Positions 4,217-12,893 of a stretch of 24,000 nt of DNA are shown here, in pieces. A program made the translations under genes and the position numbers. This stretch comes from Moraxellaceae bacterium AER2_44_116. Its GTDB lineage: Bacteria; Pseudomonadota; Gammaproteobacteria; Pseudomonadales; Moraxellaceae. The stretch is from assembly GCA_006546595.1 (NCBI GenBank), contig VIAD01000007.1, forward strand, positions 146,853-170,852. The letters run 5' to 3'. The notes below the pieces were generated by a model. The model was not told the origin of the DNA, searched no databases, and worked only from the letters and a program-made list of their open reading frames with translations. Numbering within the stretch: position 1 is the first letter of the stretch; every line of letters starts with the position of its first letter.

Positions 4217-4927
4217 CTACGGTTTAGCCAAATAATCCGCCATCGCCGCAAAGAGCACAAAACAGCTTTCTAATACTTCATCAAACGGTTGGGCAAAACC
4301 ACTATGTACCCAGCGCATGACTATATGGACATTTGCGCCATTTAAGCCTGCGGTGAGCAAATCCACATTCAAGCCTGTTTCGGCAAATCGGGGAAACATC
4401 ACTTGGCCAAATTGCTGTAACAGCGTATCAAAACTACTCATGGTGTCGCGAATCAATACTGCATTTTCAAAACGTACATGCGGCACATCAATAAATAAAA
4501 TACGGGCAATACGAGGATCATTCGACACGTAACGTAAAAACACCGTGAGTCCCAGCCGAATCAAATGTTTTGGCTCTTTGTTTTCTTCCGCTAATATCGT
4601 ACTAATAATGACCTGCTGCATGCCCTTAATCAGTCGCTGATATATCGCCACTAATAATTCTTCGTGATTTTTAAACGACTCATAAAAATAGCGTTCGGTG
4701 AGTTTAGCTTCGGCACAAATTTCACGCACCGTCACGCGATAAAAACCGTGCGTACCAAAACATTGTAAGCCCGCTTCTATTAACTTTTCGTAACGCTCAG
4801 CTTGCCGTTGTTCGGCGCTCACTCCACGAAAACTACGGCGTTTTTTATCTGACAGCTCTTTGTCATCGGTCAATGGTTCAGTCATTTTGAAAAATAACTC
4901 ACTAATTTCGATTTCAGATGTTGACAT
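4217..4927 (-). CDS. TetR/AcrR-family transcriptional regulator
   Basis: 236 aa. HTH LIEAGLQCFGTHGFYRVTVREICAEAKLTERYFYESFKNHEEL. Divergent from the monooxygenase gene. Confidence 0.85.
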   Translation of the reverse strand: MSTSEIEISELFFKMTEPLTDDKELSDKKRRSFRGVSAEQRQAERYEKLIEAGLQCFGTHGFYRVTVREICAEAKLTERYFYESFKNHEELLVAIYQRLIKGMQQVIISTILAEENKEPKHLIRLGLTVFLRYVSNDPRIARILFIDVPHVRFENAVLIRDTMSSFDTLLQQFGQVMFPRFAETGLNVDLLTAGLNGANVHIVMRWVHSGFAQPFDEVLESCFVLFAAMADYLAKP

Positions 4928-5089: not shown

Positions 5090-6556
5090 ATGACAACGAT
5101 TAGTCCTGATTATCAAGTTATTGTCGTCGGCACAGGTTTTTCTGGCCTCGGAATGGGTATTGCCTTGAAAAAAGCAGGCATCAACTCCTTTGCCATTTTA
5201 GAAAAAGCCGATGATGTTGGCGGCACATGGCGCGACAACCATTACCCTGGTTGTGCTTGTGACGTGCAATCACACCTATATTCTTTCTCGTTTGAGCCTA
5301 ATCCAAACTGGACACGGATGTATGCGCCTCAGCCAGAAATCAAAAAATACTTGCAACACTGTGCGCGTAAATACGGTTTAATGCCACAAATTCAGTTTGG
5401 CCAAGAAGTCAAAAAAGCTATTTATGACGAACAAAATAAACTTTGGCGTTTAGAAACAGCCGCAGGTAAAACGATTACCTCGCGTATGGTCGTTTCAGGC
5501 ATGGGCGGTTTAAGTACCGCTGCTTACCCTAATATCAAAGGCTTAAATACCTTTAAAGGCAAAACCTTCCACTCACAGGATTGGGATCACGATTACCCAT
5601 TAACAGGTAAACGTGTTGCCGTGATTGGTACAGGCGCAAGTGCAATTCAATTTGTGCCGCAAATCGTGCCACAAGTCGCGCATTTAGACTTATACCAACG
5701 CACACCACCGTGGATTATGCCGAAGCCTGACCGTGAAATTACTTCAGCCGAACGCACTTTGTTTAAATATGTGCCCAAAAGCCAAGAGGCAATTCGCAAC
5801 GCCATTTACTTGCAATTAGAAAGTCGTGTTTTAGGTTTTGTACTCAATCCACGCGTCATGAAATTACCTGAACTCCAAGCACGTCGTCATATTCGCCAAG
5901 CGATTAAAGACCCTGTTTTACGGAAAAAAGTGACACCCGATTACGCTTTTGGTTGTAAGCGAGTGTTGATTTCTAATGATTATTTACCTTCTTTAGCCAA
6001 ACCGAATGTTGATGTCATTAGTCATGGCATTAAAGAAGTACGAGCGAATAGCATCGTCACCGATGACGGCCAAGAACGCATCGTCGATGCCATTATTTAT
6101 GGCACAGGCTTTAAAGCGCAAGACCCTATTCCGCGTGGCGCAGTGTTTGGCAAAAAAGGCGTTGATTTAATTGATACATGGCAACAAGGCGCACAGGCCT
6201 ATTTAGGCAGTGCGGTGAATGGTTTCCCTAACTTCTTTATGTTGATGGGGCCAAACACAGGCTTAGGTCATAGCTCGATGGTGTTTATGATTGAGTCACA
6301 AATTGCCTATGTCATGGACTGCTTAAAACAAATGCAAAAAAATGGCTGGAAAGAAGTCGATGTTCGTGCTGAAGCACAACAAAGCTTTAATACCGACTTG
6401 CAAGAAAAGCTAGGCAACTCGGTGTGGAGTACGGGCTGTAAGAGTTGGTACGTCAATGCGGATGGCAAAAACACGACGTTATGGCCGGGCTTTACCTTCG
6501 ACTTCCGTCGTCAAACTGCCAATTTTGACGCTAAAAACTATGCGGTTGAGCAGTAA
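5090..6556 (+). CDS. Type I Baeyer-Villiger / flavin-containing monooxygenase (FAD, NADPH)
   Basis: 488 aa. First Rossmann motif VVGTGFSGLG. BVMO fingerprint FxGxxxHxxxW[PD] is present as FKGKTFHSQDWD. Second Rossmann motif VIGTGASAIQ. Also carries the YPGCACDVQSHLYSFSF motif. Confidence 0.85.
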   Translation: MTTISPDYQVIVVGTGFSGLGMGIALKKAGINSFAILEKADDVGGTWRDNHYPGCACDVQSHLYSFSFEPNPNWTRMYAPQPEIKKYLQHCARKYGLMPQIQFGQEVKKAIYDEQNKLWRLETAAGKTITSRMVVSGMGGLSTAAYPNIKGLNTFKGKTFHSQDWDHDYPLTGKRVAVIGTGASAIQFVPQIVPQVAHLDLYQRTPPWIMPKPDREITSAERTLFKYVPKSQEAIRNAIYLQLESRVLGFVLNPRVMKLPELQARRHIRQAIKDPVLRKKVTPDYAFGCKRVLISNDYLPSLAKPNVDVISHGIKEVRANSIVTDDGQERIVDAIIYGTGFKAQDPIPRGAVFGKKGVDLIDTWQQGAQAYLGSAVNGFPNFFMLMGPNTGLGHSSMVFMIESQIAYVMDCLKQMQKNGWKEVDVRAEAQQSFNTDLQEKLGNSVWSTGCKSWYVNADGKNTTLWPGFTFDFRRQTANFDAKNYAVEQ

Positions 6557-6572
6557 AAATCCATCACCCCAA

Positions 6573-6593
6573 CCCTCTCCCAATCGGAGAGGG
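6573..6593. repeat. GC-rich hairpin (8-bp stem) between monooxygenase and SDR genes
   Basis: CCCTCTCC-CAATC-GGAGAGGG. No U-tract follows, so it is REP-like or an mRNA-stabilising hairpin rather than a canonical terminator. Confidence 0.5.
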
Positions 6594-6630
6594 AATAACA
6601 CTCACCATTTTCAGATTTAGGAAAACACTC

Positions 6631-7461
6631 ATGAAATTATTTGCTAACAAAGTCGCGGCGATTACAGGTGCAGGTTCAGGTATTGGTCGGGCGTTGGCTC
6701 TCAATTTAGCCCAACAAGGCTGTCATTTAGCGTTAAGCGATGTCAACGAACAAGGCTTAGCGGAAACAGTTAAACAGGCTCAGTCTTTTGGTGTCAAAGT
6801 CACTAGCCAAAAATTAGATGTTGCCAATAAAGACGGTGTTCATGCGTGGGCAGATAGCGTGGTTCGAGACCACGGCAAAGTAAATCTTATCTTCAATAAT
6901 GCGGGCGTTGCTTTGGGTAGTACCGTCGAAGGCATGAGCTACGACGAATTAGCATGGGTGATGAATATTAACTTTTGGGGCGTTGTTTACGGCACGAAAG
7001 CCTTTTTACCGTACCTAAAAGCATCAGGCGATGGCCATATTGTTAATGTATCGAGTGTATTTGGCCTTTGCGCACAACCGACACAAAGCGCGTACAACGC
7101 CAGTAAATTTGCGGTGCGTGGTTTTACCGAAGCCTTGCGTCAAGAATTAGATTTAGAAAAAGCCCCTGTCAGCGTGACCTGTGTTCACCCCGGTGGTATT
7201 AAAACCAATATTGCCAAAGCAGCAAAGATGAATGACAGCATCAGAAGCGTTGGTTTAGACCCGTCAACCAGCACTAAAAATTTCGAGAAAATGTTCCGCA
7301 CCACACCCGCAGAGGCGGCTAACGTTATTTTGAATGCCGTACAAAAAGACTCTCGCCGCGTGTTAATTGGTGGTGATGCCTATGTCATTGATGCGATGCA
7401 ACGTTTGTTGCCAACGAGCTATCAAAGACTGGTAACAATGGGTACACGGTTTATGAAGTAA
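6631..7461 (+). CDS. classical short-chain dehydrogenase/reductase (SDR)
   Basis: 276 aa. Carries TGAGSGIGRA (TGxxxGxG), NNAG, and the catalytic S...YNASK motif. Confidence 0.9.
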   Translation: MKLFANKVAAITGAGSGIGRALALNLAQQGCHLALSDVNEQGLAETVKQAQSFGVKVTSQKLDVANKDGVHAWADSVVRDHGKVNLIFNNAGVALGSTVEGMSYDELAWVMNINFWGVVYGTKAFLPYLKASGDGHIVNVSSVFGLCAQPTQSAYNASKFAVRGFTEALRQELDLEKAPVSVTCVHPGGIKTNIAKAAKMNDSIRSVGLDPSTSTKNFEKMFRTTPAEAANVILNAVQKDSRRVLIGGDAYVIDAMQRLLPTSYQRLVTMGTRFMK

Positions 7462-7501: not shown

Positions 7502-7619
7502 TAAGTACATCAACAAAAGTTTATTTGTATTTTCCGTTCGCACTGAGCTTGTCGAAGTGTTTGCTGCCAATGGTTCGACAAGCTCACCATGAGCGGTGAA
7601 ACTTTTGTGTAGGTACTTA
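7502..7619. repeat. nested palindromic element (outer and inner inverted repeats) between convergent SDR and ferredoxin-reductase genes
   Basis: Outer inverted repeat: TAAGTACATCAACAAAAGTTT (7502..7522) with AAACTTTTGTGTAGGTACTTA (7599..7619). Inner inverted repeat: CCGTTCGCACTGAGCTTGTCGAA (7534..7556) with TTCGACAAGCTCACCATGAGCGG (7574..7596). Confidence 0.75.
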
Positions 7620-8834
7620 AACTAGCTCTTTTACAGCAATAGACTCATCGACCAATCGGCTAGGCTCAATCACAATACCCTCTGTGATTATTTTTTTACT
7701 TAGCATAAATTCTTGTGGTCGGTTAATGCAGTCTGCTGCAATTAAACGCCCTTCTTTGAAATAAAAAGCAGCAAAACTACGACTGGCCAGTTTATCGCCA
7801 CGAATGACAACATGGTCATAACCTTGGCTTAAGCCAGCAATTTGTAATTTTAGATCGTATTGATCCGACCAAAACCACGGCAAGCTTTTGTATGCTTTCG
7901 TCAAGCCACACAGCGTAGCCGCCGCTGTTTTACCCTGCTCGCTCGCATTGGGAACGGATTCCAAACGCATTCTACGGCCATAAATCGCATTAAAGTGATT
8001 AGCACAGTCGCCCGCTGCAACAACATTGGAGTCGTTGGTACGGCAAAACTCATCAACAATAATACCATTATCGACTTCAATACCCTCCTCCTGAGCCAAT
8101 TCAACATTGGGTAATACACCTACGCCAATAATCACTAAATCCGCAGGAAACTCTACACCATTAGCACACAGCACTTTTTCTGCACGTCCGTCGCCAGTAA
8201 TTGCCTTAACTGAGATACCTGTATGAATTTTTACACCTTCTTCACGGTGAATACGGGTATAAAACTCAGATAGCTCAGGTGCGGTGACCCGTTGCAAAAT
8301 TCTGTCGGCCATTTCTAGCACTACCACATCCATACCCTGCTTTCTTAGTGCAGCCGCCGTTTCTAAGCCAATATAACCGCCACCAATAATCACCGCTCGT
8401 TTGTCTTTGGCAACATAGGGCTGAATGCCTGTCACATCGGCAATGTTTCGCAAATAATGAACGCCCGCTAGCTCTTCACCGACAATAGCTGCTTTTCTGA
8501 CGCGAGCGCCCATGCACAACGCGAGTTTGTCATAGGCAAGTTGCGTGCCGTCGTCGAGCGTGAGTATTTGTTGCACTCGATTGATAGCCGTCACCCGACC
8601 TTGCTTAAACTGGATGTTATTTTTTTCATAAAATGCCGCAGGACGAATCAGTAAATCATCAACAGTTTTTTCACCCGCCAAAAATGTTTTAGACAAAGGT
8701 GGGCGATGATAAGGCAGATAAGGCTCGTCACCGATGACCAAAATATCACCGTCCCAACCCTCCTGACGCAAGCTGGTTGTCAGTTGCGCCGCCGCATGAC
8801 TTGCACCAATAATAATGGCTATTTTGTTGGTCAT
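7617..8834 (-). CDS. FAD-dependent NAD(P)H:ferredoxin reductase (putidaredoxin-reductase type), redox partner of the P450
   Basis: 405 aa. Two dinucleotide-binding motifs (IAIIIGASHAAAQ and AVIIGGGYIGLETAA). PLSK motif near the N-terminus. AAGDCA motif. Last gene of the P450 operon. Confidence 0.9.
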   Translation of the reverse strand: MTNKIAIIIGASHAAAQLTTSLRQEGWDGDILVIGDEPYLPYHRPPLSKTFLAGEKTVDDLLIRPAAFYEKNNIQFKQGRVTAINRVQQILTLDDGTQLAYDKLALCMGARVRKAAIVGEELAGVHYLRNIADVTGIQPYVAKDKRAVIIGGGYIGLETAAALRKQGMDVVVLEMADRILQRVTAPELSEFYTRIHREEGVKIHTGISVKAITGDGRAEKVLCANGVEFPADLVIIGVGVLPNVELAQEEGIEVDNGIIVDEFCRTNDSNVVAAGDCANHFNAIYGRRMRLESVPNASEQGKTAAATLCGLTKAYKSLPWFWSDQYDLKLQIAGLSQGYDHVVIRGDKLASRSFAAFYFKEGRLIAADCINRPQEFMLSKKIITEGIVIEPSRLVDESIAVKELV

Positions 8835-8930: not shown

Positions 8931-9710
8931 TCACTTAAATTCAAACTGAATATTATCATCAAGCCCATGAGTTTTAACGTAACGCTCTAGCCCCAGTATT
9001 GAGCTATAGGGTGCATTACGCATCATAAAATTGATAGCCCATGCAGGTAAATCTTCACCAGGGTTTACATAACCTTCTAAGTCAAGCTTGATTGATTCAT
9101 TACTGAGTGGTGTGATTTCAATTTTAAACGTAAATTCCTGCGCACGAATCACACCCCGTACTTTCGGAATATAGTCGGGTAATGCATTAAAACGAAGCAC
9201 CAATTTTCCTGTTTGTTTTGAATATGGCTCAATCACAGCACGCAATACCGTATCTCGATCTGGAAATGGTGTTGGCACATTCACCTTTAGATAAAAAAGA
9301 GACTCTCTTGAAGAAACTTTTTTGAGTAGTTTTGAATCCAAACACTCCCAAAACCATCGCTTCCAACTATCACCACCCACTAGCGCCATTGCTGTTTGTT
9401 CCATAGGCACTTTGATAGTGGCTTCTATCTTGAATGTACGGGTATGCTTGCCTTCTTCTTGTTTATACCATGCCTGAATGCCGCGTCGTTTATCATTTTT
9501 AGATTGTATCCAAATATCTTTTTGCCCTTTTTCTTGAAGATAATCCAGATCATTATCATCAGATGCTGCATTAGCAACTCCTACCCACAAAACAAGCATT
9601 AGCTTTAGAACAAGATGACAATAACGACGTTGGTAATCACCAAAAATGTCATAGAGAGACGTTTGCAGTGAGTGCTTACGTTCAAAACCGAGACACTGAA
9701 TCATGGACAT
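8931..9710 (-). CDS. START/SRPBCC-like lipid-binding domain protein with apparent N-terminal signal peptide
   Basis: The ORF-track start at 9752 is a TTG without an SD, so I prefer the first in-frame ATG at 9710 (or 9704). The stretch QRRYCHLVLKLMLVLWVGVANA|ASDD looks like a Sec signal. START-like signature seen by eye: PFPDRDTVLRAV ... VIRAQEFTFKIEITPL ... YVNPGEDLPAWAINFMM. Confidence 0.55.
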   Translation of the reverse strand: MSMIQCLGFERKHSLQTSLYDIFGDYQRRYCHLVLKLMLVLWVGVANAASDDNDLDYLQEKGQKDIWIQSKNDKRRGIQAWYKQEEGKHTRTFKIEATIKVPMEQTAMALVGGDSWKRWFWECLDSKLLKKVSSRESLFYLKVNVPTPFPDRDTVLRAVIEPYSKQTGKLVLRFNALPDYIPKVRGVIRAQEFTFKIEITPLSNESIKLDLEGYVNPGEDLPAWAINFMMRNAPYSSILGLERYVKTHGLDDNIQFEFK

Positions 9711-9751
9711 ACCCGTTAAATTGATAAAAAATTTCCCACATAAGGAATACA

Positions 9752-9789
9752 ACGCTACGTAACATTCGTTTATTTGGGTTACGCAGCGT
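9752..9789 (-). other. intercistronic hairpin between the P450 stop and the START-like gene
   Basis: ACGCTACGTAAC-N14-GTTACGCAGCGT. 12-nt arms with 1 mismatch. Confidence 0.4.
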
Positions 9790-9795
9790 GTACAT

Positions 9796-11253
9796 TTATG
9801 CTTTAGCGGTAAGTTTTACCATCATCTTGGCATAACCTCTAACAAAGTTAGACTGAACAATTTCAGGCTCGCTCAACACTTCGATGTTGTCAAAACGTGC
9901 TAACAACTCTTCCCACAAGATACGCAATTGCAATTCAGCTAAACGATTACCCATACAACGATGGACACCAAAGCCAAAGGACAAATGATTACGCGCACCT
10001 TTACGGTCAATAATAAAATCGTCAGGGTTTTCAATGGCGCGTTCGTCACGATTACCTGAGACATACCACATCACCACTTTATCGCCTTTTTTAATCAGTT
10101 GACCATTTAGCTCAACATCTTGTTTGGCAATACGGCGCATATAAGCTAACGGGGTTTGCCAACGAATAATCTCTGACACCATATTGGGAATGACACTTGG
10201 GTTCTTTTTAAGTTTAGTAAATTCATTGGGAAACAAATTCAACGCATAAACACCGCCAGACATGGAGTTACGCGTGGTGTCATTACCACCCACAATTAAC
10301 AAAGCCAGATTACCCATAAACTCCATCGGCTTTTTAATTAAGTCTTCGGTATCTTTAGAATAAACCAGCATACTCATCACATCGTAGCCCATTGGTACGC
10401 CTGCGGCTTTTTGCGCGGCTTTTTTATACCAAAGCTCGGAGAATTGTTTGGTCATCTCAAAAGCAGCGTTATAAAACTCATCATTGCTACTACCCGGCCC
10501 ACCTGTCGCTTGTGGACTGCCTGCAATAATGTCCGACCAATAAACCAACTGATGACGTTGTTCGTAAGGAAAATCAAATAATGTGGCTAACATGCGCGTC
10601 GTCAATTCAATAGATACGTTTTCTACCCAATCAAAAGGCTTATTGACAGGCAACGCGTCTAAAACTTCTTGGGTGCGAGAACGAATCAAGCCTTCTAACT
10701 CTTTTAAGTTTTTAGGGGCAACCACATCTTGCACCGCCTGACGCTGTTTATCATGCTTGGGTGGATCCATAGCAATAAACATTTCTGCGGGTAAACCTTC
10801 GGGTGTTTGACCAATAATAATCGCAGGTTCGGCAGAAAATAAGTCATGGTTTTTATCTACAAAAACAATATCTTCGTAACGAGTCACCGACCAAAACGCC
10901 CCAAATGGACTATTTTTTTGATAGTGAACAGGACACTCATCACGTAAGCGCTTAAAGTAGGGATTTACTTGATGTTGTCGATATAAAAACGGATTACTGA
11001 CATCAATGTCTTCTAGTTTTACGGTTGACACATCGGGAATTGGCTGTTCAATAAACTCCTCAAACGGTTTGGTTTGCAATACCTTATGTTTTACCGTTTG
11101 AAAAATCTGCACGCCTTTCACTAGCATAGGAATAGGCACATTCGCCGATACTTTTTCGACCACAAAGTTTGAAGCCTTTTCAATAGCAGGTACTTTTTCT
11201 AGCTCGGTAATAACCGAAGATGCTTTTTCAATAGCAGATGTTAAGAGGCTCAT
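9796..11253 (-). CDS. Cytochrome P450, CYP153 family (alkane omega-hydroxylase type)
   Basis: Heme loop FGFGVHRCMGNRLAE. I-helix LLIVGGNDTTRNS. Long stretches match CYP153A proteins as I recall them (DVSNPFLYRQ, YFKRLRDECPVHYQKNSPFGAFWSVTRYEDI, IPNMVSEIIRWQTPLAYMRRIAKQDVEL). The track start at 11286 is a TTG with no SD. ATG 11253 is preceded by GGTGA. Confidence 0.93.
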   Translation of the reverse strand: MSLLTSAIEKASSVITELEKVPAIEKASNFVVEKVSANVPIPMLVKGVQIFQTVKHKVLQTKPFEEFIEQPIPDVSTVKLEDIDVSNPFLYRQHQVNPYFKRLRDECPVHYQKNSPFGAFWSVTRYEDIVFVDKNHDLFSAEPAIIIGQTPEGLPAEMFIAMDPPKHDKQRQAVQDVVAPKNLKELEGLIRSRTQEVLDALPVNKPFDWVENVSIELTTRMLATLFDFPYEQRHQLVYWSDIIAGSPQATGGPGSSNDEFYNAAFEMTKQFSELWYKKAAQKAAGVPMGYDVMSMLVYSKDTEDLIKKPMEFMGNLALLIVGGNDTTRNSMSGGVYALNLFPNEFTKLKKNPSVIPNMVSEIIRWQTPLAYMRRIAKQDVELNGQLIKKGDKVVMWYVSGNRDERAIENPDDFIIDRKGARNHLSFGFGVHRCMGNRLAELQLRILWEELLARFDNIEVLSEPEIVQSNFVRGYAKMMVKLTAKA

Positions 11254-11330: not shown

Positions 11331-11651
11331 TCACATTTGAAACTCTGGTAAATGCACGATCATGCCATTCATGGCATCTGATGCTTTAATTTGGCAAGAA
11401 AGACGGGATGTTGGTGTTTTTTCGGGGGTCATTTCGAGCATTTGTAACTCATCGGGATTGATGCTGCCCGCCGCTTTTATCCATTGGCTATCAACAATGA
11501 CATGACACGTTCCACAGGCGCACGCACCACCACAATCGGCATCAATACCTGGTACGCCATTATCCATCGCTATCTGCATCAAGGACTTGCCCACTTCAAG
11601 CTCAACCTGATGTTGTTTGCCATCATGCTCTACAAACGTAATATTGCCCAT
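11331..11651 (-). CDS. [2Fe-2S] ferredoxin, adrenodoxin/putidaredoxin type
   Basis: 106 aa. Cluster ligands CGGACACGTCH plus the downstream LSCQI. GGGAGA SD upstream. First gene of the P450 operon. Confidence 0.9.
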   Translation of the reverse strand: MGNITFVEHDGKQHQVELEVGKSLMQIAMDNGVPGIDADCGGACACGTCHVIVDSQWIKAAGSINPDELQMLEMTPEKTPTSRLSCQIKASDAMNGMIVHLPEFQM

Positions 11652-11816: not shown

Positions 11817-12893
11817 ATGTCTGACGCACATTATTTTGCCGAAGATATTGCCAATATCCCTTCCAATTACTCGCGTATTATTGGTCGTGAGCTAGGTTTA
11901 CAAATTCGAGACTTGCCTAAATTATTAAAATTTACCCAATTAAGCCCTGAGCAGTTTTTGCAAGAAGACATTTTGCTCACTACACGACAGCAAATTCAAA
12001 TCCTTAATAACGCGTTGCAACTGTCACCTCATCAAGATTTTGGTTTACGTTTAGGTCGTCACCTAACACCTGCTACACATGGCGCAATGGGCTTTTTGGT
12101 CAATAGCAGCCCTAATTTGATGATGGCGTTACAAGCATTTCAGAGTTTTGTGCCAACCAGAATGAGCTTTACGCGCTTAAATTTTCAAACTAAGCAAGAT
12201 TGGGTTGAATGTGAGATTAAGTTTGACGCGGTCTTAAATGCGGAAGTTTATCGCAGCCTATTAGAATGTTGTTTAATGGTCTTTGTCGCGTGTGCCGAGT
12301 TTATTATTGGTCGTCCCTTAACTGAGGCTCATATTGATTTTAGCTTCGCGAAGCCCAGCTATAGCCATGTGTATAGCGATTATTTTGCAGGGAGTTACCA
12401 ATTTTCAGCATCACATTCAAGCATCAAAATCCCTTTAGACATTTGTCATATTGTCAATGTCTCAGCAAACCATGAAAACTATGTTTTAGCGATGAAACAA
12501 TGTGAAATCATGTTGTCACAATTAAAATCACACAAATGTAGCACCACCTACCAATTACAAAAAATGATGCTATCGCAACCCTTAGGCACACTCAGCGAAG
12601 AAGATGCTGCGGCCGCACTCTTTATTAGCAAACGCACGCTTGCACGCCGTTTAGAAAAAGAAGGCAGTAGCTATACAGATATTCGTGAAAAATTGCTATC
12701 AGAACAAGCCAGTAGCTATTTGCGTGACAGTCAAATGTCGGTAGAAGCCATTGCCTTGCTACTAAACTACCATGACAGTGCTAATTTTCGCCGCGCTTTT
12801 AAACGTTGGCGAAATCTTTCTCCCACACAATACCGCGAGCAGTTTACCAAAGAGGCTTCGACTCCTCTCAGCCAGCATAAAAATGTACTCTGA
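11817..12893 (+). CDS. AraC/XylS-family transcriptional regulator (CYP153-operon regulator type)
   Basis: 358 aa. C-terminal double HTH (ALFISKRTLARRLEKEGSSYTDI ... LLLNYHDSANFRRAFKRWRNLSPTQYR). Divergent from the P450 operon. GGAG SD at 11805. Confidence 0.9.
   Translation: MSDAHYFAEDIANIPSNYSRIIGRELGLQIRDLPKLLKFTQLSPEQFLQEDILLTTRQQIQILNNALQLSPHQDFGLRLGRHLTPATHGAMGFLVNSSPNLMMALQAFQSFVPTRMSFTRLNFQTKQDWVECEIKFDAVLNAEVYRSLLECCLMVFVACAEFIIGRPLTEAHIDFSFAKPSYSHVYSDYFAGSYQFSASHSSIKIPLDICHIVNVSANHENYVLAMKQCEIMLSQLKSHKCSTTYQLQKMMLSQPLGTLSEEDAAAALFISKRTLARRLEKEGSSYTDIREKLLSEQASSYLRDSQMSVEAIALLLNYHDSANFRRAFKRWRNLSPTQYREQFTKEASTPLSQHKNVL

Follow-up and report, generated by a model that had tools for sequence, protein, structure and literature searches.

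A START-domain protein with a predicted export signal, encoded inside a CYP153 cytochrome P450 operon

A stretch of 24,000 nucleotides from Moraxellaceae bacterium AER2_44_116 (GCA_006546595.1, contig VIAD01000007.1, positions 146,853 to 170,852; hereafter the window) encodes a CYP153-type cytochrome P450 system with one additional gene, located between the genes for the P450 and its ferredoxin reductase. Membership of the gene product in the START domain family is established, since the sequence profile and the predicted fold agree, and its amino terminus has the features of a signal for export. Fold and operon are each of a known type; their combination is new, and it comes with an undescribed expansion of the START family. 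On balance, we lean toward a periplasmic carrier that serves the CYP153 pathway, through either substrate supply or product removal. Coordinates below are those of the window.

The gene and its product

8931..9704, minus strand: START-like gene; 257 codons plus stop codon 8931-8933; preferred start ATG 9704.
9567..9704, minus strand: predicted signal peptide, residues 1-46; basic n-region, hydrophobic core LVLKLMLVLWVGV, and signal-peptidase I site ANA↓AS.
8934..9566, minus strand: mature START domain, 211 amino acids; helix-grip fold; hallmark motifs PFPDRD and NPGxxLPAWAxN.

In its longest form the open reading frame spans 8931-9752 on the minus strand, encoding 273 amino acids from TTG 9752 or 259 amino acids from ATG 9710. 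An earlier, sequence-only reading of this DNA had reported a protein of about 260 residues between the P450 and the reductase, beginning at 9710. The protein is indeed there: the open reading frame and the flanking genes are as described, and all of the peptides quoted in that reading are present in the translation. The start is not borne out. ATG 9704 is unchanged in all five orthologous operons that were aligned across the P450-START spacer, and both close orthologs of that alignment have ATA or ATC where the window has ATG 9710. Because ATG 9704 is invariant and ATG 9710 is not, the start is placed at 9704, giving a product of 257 amino acids; the in-frame upstream candidates ATG 9710 and TTG 9752 were rejected, with conservation seen for ATG 9704 only.

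The ratio of nonsynonymous to synonymous substitution rates (dN/dS) is 0.10-0.21 in pairwise comparisons with four orthologs (dS from 0.5 to about 3), and the open reading frame is therefore a real gene under purifying selection, not a chance occurrence. In the same comparison, the P450 has values of 0.01-0.05 and the reductase has 0.06-0.13. The START gene also has a distinctive composition: its G+C content (0.39) and its G+C content at third codon positions (GC3; 0.30) are the lowest among the 27 START paralogs of the genome (medians 0.42 and 0.39), and both lie below those of the operon neighbors (GC3 0.38-0.44).

A START domain by sequence and by predicted structure

As a single sequence, the protein matches the Pfam START model (PF01852) with E=2.5e-4 and 20.9 bits, slightly under the gathering score of 22. 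The mature 211-residue sequence (24.6 kDa; isoelectric point 8.5), compared with the sequences in the PDB, matches a Xanthomonas protein (3QSZ; E=1.8e-15) and human phosphatidylcholine transfer protein (PCTP; 1LN1; E=7.8e-7), with the PFPDRD and NPGxxLPAWAxN motifs aligned in the latter match. A family profile made from 41 sequences (alignment A2) matches 3QSZ at E=1.2e-34, PCTP at 3.4e-13, STARD10 at 1.1e-11, and StAR at 2.7e-5.

The same alignment was used for an AlphaFold2 model, which contains ten strands followed by a long carboxyl-terminal helix, residues 223-248 (mean predicted local distance difference test score, pLDDT, 86.7; predicted template modeling score, pTM, 0.74). Foldseek comparison of this model with the PDB again identifies 3QSZ as the best match (E=3.5e-14; target-normalized TM-score 0.89-0.90; root-mean-square deviation 2.2 Å), and all of the top 50 matches are START domains. 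These include structures solved with ceramide, phosphatidylcholine, myristic acid, or carotenoid. An NCBIfam search with the protein returned no informative match, and domains of the MlaC type, the LolA type, or the beta-jellyroll type of LptA were found neither by Pfam nor among the top Foldseek hits, all of which are START.

The best match in both sequence and fold, 3QSZ, is a structural-genomics entry from Xanthomonas axonopodis (fragment 25-204) that resembles the window protein in size and in its single-domain build. The crystallized fragment leaves out the first 24 residues, consistent with an amino-terminal leader. The two proteins are only 23% identical, and the window protein differs in belonging to a 27-copy expansion and in lying inside a P450 operon. 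To our knowledge, 3QSZ has no described function or genomic partner.

The predicted export signal

The window protein has the sequence attributes of a Sec signal: a basic n-region, a hydrophobic h-region, small residues at positions −3 and −1, and a polar mature end. Cleavage is predicted after Ala46, at the site A-N-A↓A-S-D-D, to leave a mature part of 211 amino acids. In an alignment of orthologs and paralogs (A1), the hydrophobic stretch and the small-x-small site are co-aligned in 17 of 17 sequences, and an acidic segment of the DDLDxL type follows the small-x-small site.

Signals were detected with a heuristic rule of our own, which was measured against background open reading frames of at least 150 amino acids from the same genome. 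The rule passes 99 of 118 family members (84%), vs 97 of 660 background open reading frames (15%). Among the top family representatives from a library of 1.8 billion proteins, 112 of 146 pass (77%).

The P450-linked proteins have an unusually long and basic n-region, of about 30 amino acids. This extension was considered as a conserved functional module, an idea weakened by the dN/dS of about 0.36-0.72 over its 33 codons and by its absence from the ortholog at locus L155, which has an in-frame stop codon upstream and a canonical 26-residue leader without the long n-region. Being weakly constrained and missing in L155, the extension probably is not essential. Two other routes were also considered. 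Export through the Tat system, with its S/T-R-R-x-F-L-K motif, is unlikely because the twin arginine of the window protein (QRRYCHL) is not conserved in orthologs; P0003 and P0006 to P0010 lack it. Attachment as a lipoprotein was likewise rejected: the lipobox [LVI][ASTVI][GAS]C is absent, no cysteine lies at the cleavage region of the window protein, and a lipobox-like string occurs in one of the 146 representatives.

A different reading of the amino terminus places the protein at the inner membrane or in the cytoplasm: either the hydrophobic segment is an uncleaved anchor or the protein is cytoplasmic, and the START domain would hand substrate directly to the P450, much as StAR does for P450scc in mitochondria. 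The long basic n-region follows the positive-inside rule, the AlphaFold model shows residues 19-43 as a single long helix, and StAR itself partners a class I P450 with adrenodoxin and its reductase. However, an n-region positioned by the positive-inside rule still leaves the START domain facing the periplasm. Moreover, every ortholog and paralog retains the small-x-small site that ends the hydrophobic core, and nearly all paralogs, as well as the L155 ortholog, have short canonical leaders. We regard this reading as very improbable.

The operon and its surroundings

11331..11651, minus strand: 2Fe-2S ferredoxin, first operon gene (Pfam Fer2, E=4e-12).
9796..11253, minus strand: CYP153A-type cytochrome P450, 485 amino acids from ATG 11253; the open reading frame reaches TTG 11286 (Pfam p450).
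9752..9789, minus strand: intercistronic hairpin that directly follows the P450 stop codon and precedes the START gene (RNA fold).
7617..8834, minus strand: FAD-dependent ferredoxin reductase, last operon gene (Pyr_redox_2, E=7e-65; Reductase_C, 3e-33).
11817..12893, plus strand: divergent AraC-family regulator, presumed operon activator (Pfam Arabinose_bd, HTH_18, and HTH_AraC).

The P450 matches CYP153A33 (5FYF; E=1.4e-215) and CYP153A7 (3RWL; E=3e-143) in the PDB. With P450, ferredoxin, and reductase encoded in one operon, the system is predicted to be a CYP153 class I three-component omega-hydroxylase of alkanes or other fatty chains. The AraC-family regulator retains its position in two orthologous loci, L044 and L047.

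The four operon genes lie on one strand, separated by gaps of 44-96 bp, and neither a consensus terminator nor a promoter above background was found between them. From these features we infer that the START gene is cotranscribed with the P450 gene. The sequence-only reading thus stands on several counts: the START-like fold, the exported-looking amino terminus (a Sec-type signal with a conserved AxA site, as far as sequence can tell), and the orientation of the gene within the CYP153 operon.

The hairpin at 9752-9789 has a stem of about 16 bp, and the 101-nucleotide stretch that contains it has a minimum free energy of −24.1 kcal/mol (z-score −1.9). On our reading of the alignment, L041 and L044 show compensatory changes in the two arms, and another hairpin takes its place in L047 and L048. 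No U-tract follows the hairpin in the window. It may stabilize the upstream ferredoxin-P450 message or damp downstream expression. The START-less operon of the congener G004 has a hairpin after the P450 gene as well.

Abutting the P450 operon tail to tail is a module comprising a monooxygenase of the flavin-containing/Baeyer-Villiger (FMO/BVMO) type (5090-7461, plus strand) and a short-chain dehydrogenase (4217-4927, minus strand), with a TetR regulator. This monooxygenase-dehydrogenase module is retained beside the P450 operon in L044 and L047 also.

Linkage to CYP153 is tight but narrow

A word search of a database of 5.8 billion proteins identified 16 relatives of the START protein, all of them metagenomic. 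Ten of these (53-93% identical) form one clade together with the window protein, with full branch support (Shimodaira-Hasegawa-like approximate likelihood ratio test, SH-aLRT, 100). This P450-linked clade has a private stem of 0.99 substitutions per site, and is nested within the START radiation of the genera Agitococcus and Fluviicoccus; its sister is the clade that contains the paralog at C11:41273. Every ortholog with readable flanks lies in the order ferredoxin, P450, START, reductase: the window itself and six metagenomic operon versions (L041/L042/L043, L044-L046, L047, L048, L153, and L154). The outer contexts of these operons are of at least two kinds; for example, L041 lacks the AraC regulator and has other neighbors.

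The wider distribution was surveyed in CYP153 loci from species representatives, 30 in the Moraxellaceae and 28 elsewhere in the order, each read out to 1.5 kb on both flanks of the query gene. Gene order for ferredoxin, P450, and reductase is kept across all 58 loci. The canonical operons, of the Alcanivorax, Marinobacter, and Acinetobacter types, share with the window the ferredoxin, CYP153A, reductase, and divergent AraC regulator, with P450 sequences 67-97% identical across the surveyed loci. In contrast, only one of the 58 loci, the window's own, has a START gene at 1.5 kb or less from the P450, and the 57 others have none; in the window and the six metagenomic versions it sits between P450 and reductase. 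A general linkage of START to CYP153 across the Moraxellaceae and the order therefore was rejected. Operon subtypes, with reductases about 90% or about 73% identical to that of the window, each occur both with and without START, so the gene is a presence/absence polymorphism in a narrow lineage.

The conserved linkage proposed in the sequence-only reading is upheld in part: it is kept in all six ortholog versions with readable flanks, but it is confined to a narrow clade. The further claim that a START protein is not a described component of CYP153 systems agrees with our literature search, which found no publication combining CYP153 with a START domain.

Within the operon, START evolves fastest: between the window and L044, identity is 76% for the START protein vs 99% for the P450. 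Synonymous divergence between the window and L044 also differs along the operon, with the P450 at a dS of 0.31, START at 0.91, and the reductase at 0.68, a spread of about three-fold. This suggests that the operon is a recombinational mosaic, or that the P450 gene is under strong codon constraint.

These patterns bear on the possibility that the START gene is a hitch-hiker, a mobile and fast-evolving family member that landed in the P450-reductase spacer and has a general function unrelated to CYP153. Its patchy presence even among congeners, its rapid evolution relative to the P450, its low GC3, and the propensity of the family for tandem duplication are all in keeping with this idea. Yet the position between P450 and reductase has been kept while START diverged to 53% identity and dS greater than 2, with purifying selection ongoing, and the long private stem of the clade indicates specialization. 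Mere hitch-hiking thus appears quite improbable.

A different kind of CYP153 proximity was seen in a probable Fluviicoccus (L056; G012:C4:350512-354966), where a START paralog at 4237-4455, convergent, lies immediately downstream of the reductase gene of a CYP153 operon. This paralog is 59% identical to the copy at C26:17168 in the window's genome.

An expanded family of putatively exported START proteins

The genome that contains the window (G000; 3.55 Mb; 43.6% G+C) encodes 27 putatively exported START paralogs, found by protein search of the genome; nearly all have short canonical leaders. Membership of the P450-linked protein in this family was not noticed in the sequence-only reading. The named relatives that bear the family are Agitococcus and Fluviicoccus, both of the Moraxellaceae. 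A passage in PMC11495043, citing Franzmann and Skerman (1981), describes Agitococcus as a lipolytic freshwater genus.

Copy number varies sharply: 8-29 START genes in each of eight congeneric species representatives, 39-40 in the sister genus (probably Fluviicoccus), and 0-6 in other genera of the Moraxellaceae. In an even draw of 401 Gammaproteobacteria genomes, 28 match the family at E<=1e-10, mostly with one or two copies. Among the groups surveyed, the family is expanded in Agitococcus and Fluviicoccus only. More broadly, small START proteins that have a leader of 20-30 residues are numerous: of sequence clusters made at 50% identity, 7138 reach E<=0.001 against the family profile and 610 reach 1e-30. 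Literature searches found no functional study of this exported bacterial class.

Many of the paralogs are clustered. Tandem arrays in the window's genome include five genes at C30:218119-222783 (L090) and four at C17:291-7471 (L081), and pairs lie at C26:530921-532476 (L085), at C35:7994-9531 (L093), and on C24. Other Agitococcus genomes have orthologous arrays, and in the tree the copies fall into a separate clade for each array position. The arrays are therefore old.

START paralogs beside oxygenases and lipid enzymes

Several paralogs adjoin genes for hydrocarbon or lipid metabolism. At L082 (2523-5568; C24:13022-16070 in the window's genome), a gene for AlkB alkane 1-monooxygenase (E=1e-158 to PDB 8F6T) is followed on the same strand by a full START paralog, with a TetR regulator upstream. 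Beyond these lie a 134-residue START fragment without the amino-terminal half, likely a pseudogene remnant, and, further on, genes for an alpha/beta hydrolase and a glucose-methanol-choline (GMC; AlkJ-like) oxidoreductase. At L093, an FMO/BVMO-type (AlmA-like) monooxygenase gene with a divergent AraC regulator precedes two START genes on the same strand. At L080 (1608-7451; C11:38907-44751), about 115 kb from the window START gene on the same contig and with a TetR regulator upstream, a gene for a 745-residue fusion that joins a fatty-acid-desaturase-type domain to FNR-like FAD/NAD domains and a 2Fe-2S domain is followed by a START paralog on the same strand and by two acyl-CoA dehydrogenases; this paralog is the nearest to the P450-linked clade (47% identity). 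Finally, an acyl-CoA dehydrogenase gene precedes the five-gene array at L090, on the same strand.

Counting the window, genes for oxygenases or lipid enzymes fill 6 of the 34 slots that flank 17 START loci, where about 0.3 would be expected from some 33 such genes in the genome (about 1% of genes). The gene classes were chosen post hoc, after the data had been inspected, so this enrichment is indicative only. Other START paralogs have unrelated neighbors, such as Mfd, LipB, an SPFH protein, or a clostripain-like peptidase. The idea that the alkB-START pairing is deeply conserved was considered as well and rejected, since only 2 of 30 AlkB loci have it.

These neighborhoods can be set against an explanation by envelope lipid homeostasis, in which the START protein, co-induced with the P450 as a stress accessory and not as a substrate carrier, would transfer phospholipids or other membrane lipids from one membrane to the other so that the envelope is adapted or repaired in the presence of hydrocarbons or alkanols. 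After 3QSZ, its nearest solved sequence relatives are the phospholipid carriers PCTP and STARD10, and the many paralogs with neighbors unrelated to hydrocarbon catabolism would fit. Nevertheless, 27 paralogs far exceed the needs of housekeeping lipid transport, most of the Gammaproteobacteria genomes sampled are without the family at the threshold used, and the enrichment beside oxygenases and acyl-CoA dehydrogenases points to catabolism. Envelope homeostasis is thus an unlikely role.

A candidate periplasmic carrier

The best explanation for the window START gene is a specialized offshoot of the 27-member exported family. Since members of this family adjoin genes for AlkB, the AlmA-like monooxygenase, the desaturase-reductase fusion, and acyl-CoA dehydrogenases, the paralogs suggest that this lipolytic bacterium has a set of carriers suited to different pathways of lipid and hydrocarbon metabolism.

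The periplasmic carrier that we favor would work as follows. The AraC regulator would switch on the ferredoxin, P450, START, and reductase genes jointly. The START precursor, whose sequence has the features described above, would be exported by Sec and cut after ANA at residue 46. In the periplasm, the 24.6-kDa START domain would load one hydrophobic molecule into its helix-grip pocket, and would shuttle this ligand to or from the inner membrane, with the outer membrane or one of its channels at the other end of the route. It would thereby supply the cytoplasmic P450 with an alkane or other fatty-chain substrate, or take away the alcohol product. The loading and ferrying steps are proposed on the basis of the START fold and of the ligands of solved START domains. 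Substrate supply seems slightly more likely than product removal.

A variant confined to products has START extracting what the omega-hydroxylation yields, whether fatty alcohol, diol, or hydroxy acid, from the inner membrane, for further oxidation or exit, and thereby limiting alkanol toxicity. It has the merit that START ligands are amphipathic, so that an alkanol fits better than an alkane, and the FMO/BVMO-type enzyme and short-chain dehydrogenase of the adjoining module act on oxidized intermediates. Against it, the GMC oxidoreductase, short-chain dehydrogenase, and acyl-CoA dehydrogenases near the paralogs are taken to be cytoplasmic or inner-membrane types, and the operon encodes no efflux component. 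Product handling as the dedicated role seems unlikely as well.

Several considerations weigh against a periplasmic carrier for CYP153. The signal rule does not separate a cleaved signal from a membrane anchor, and a basic n-region as long as about 30 residues is atypical for a Sec signal; the START domain would face the periplasm in either case. The START protein is dispensable for the P450 system, because the operons of the closest congeners are without it: in G004 (P450 97% identical), G001, G003, and G006 (92-97% identical overall), the P450 gene leads directly to the reductase gene across a spacer of about 100-150 bp, and the best START match anywhere in these genomes is only about 45% identical. 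The START-enzyme pairings are young or unstable, since the alkB-START pair is confined to the window's genome and its nearest relative, G004. Transport direction, substrate in vs product out, is not readable from sequence. Finally, the solved START ligands that we know of (lipids, sterols, fatty acids, and carotenoids) all have polar head groups, so a pure alkane would be a new kind of START ligand.

The periplasmic carrier reading can be extended to the whole family, in a form that we offer tentatively and consider less likely than not. The 27-40 START paralogs of Agitococcus and Fluviicoccus would be substrate-specific periplasmic shuttles of hydrocarbons and lipids, each co-regulated with its own catabolic entry enzyme, and the CYP153-embedded copy would be the first periplasmic carrier feeding an alkane hydroxylase. 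The entry enzymes, on the same speculative footing, would be CYP153A, AlkB, the AlmA-like monooxygenase, the desaturase, and the acyl-CoA dehydrogenases.

Relation to described systems

Eukaryotic START proteins carry a single lipid through water. StAR feeds a class I P450, P450scc, which works with a 2Fe-2S ferredoxin and an FAD reductase. The window START protein shares the helix-grip fold and hallmark motifs with PCTP/STARD2, STARD10, StAR/STARD1, and CERT, and the enzyme architecture of StAR/P450scc/adrenodoxin/adrenodoxin-reductase is the same as that of the CYP153 system here. However, the eukaryotic proteins are cytosolic or mitochondrial, with phospholipids, ceramide, or sterols as ligands, whereas the window protein is bacterial and predicted to be Sec-exported; identities are 13-20%. 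In E. coli, START proteins have been produced alongside P450scc so as to raise the supply of substrate (PMC12279672).

In bacteria, the conceptually nearest described accessories are PraA and PraB, small proteins encoded beside an alkane hydroxylase, in this case AlkB as opposed to CYP153. Presumably they belong to a protein family other than that of the window START protein; the likeness is drawn from function only. In the Pseudomonas alkB-praA-praB-ompP1 cluster, they are reported to solubilize alkanes and to aid growth on hexadecane (PMC4542665). The outer-membrane alkane importers of the AlkL/FadL type, together with the periplasmic lipid carriers MlaC, LolA, and LptA, resemble the proposed START role in that they handle hydrophobic molecules in the Gram-negative envelope; the folds of AlkL and FadL (beta-barrel channels), MlaC, and LolA differ from that of the window protein. 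To overcome limited uptake, AlkL is routinely expressed together with CYP153A or AlkB (PMC5376172, PMC3815936). Literature searches, including those pairing alkane or alkB with START and periplasmic SRPBCC with alkane, found no START-fold periplasmic hydrocarbon carrier.

In the catabolism of alkanes and lipids by Gram-negative bacteria, passage of very hydrophobic substrates across the aqueous periplasm after FadL/AlkL-type outer-membrane channels is an outstanding step. The same crossing is a practical bottleneck for whole-cell biocatalysis with CYP153A or AlkB, where AlkL is added for uptake (PMC5376172, PMC3815936). A small, apparently exported START protein inside a CYP153 operon is a concrete candidate for this step and a naturally occurring bacterial analog of the partnership between StAR and a class I P450 in eukaryotes. 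It also provides a handle on the function of the numerous exported bacterial START proteins, for which the literature yielded no characterized example. If the paralogs do form a set of substrate-specific shuttles, then the CYP153-embedded protein would be a bacterial counterpart of StAR feeding P450scc, and the widespread exported START proteins of bacteria would have their first assigned function.

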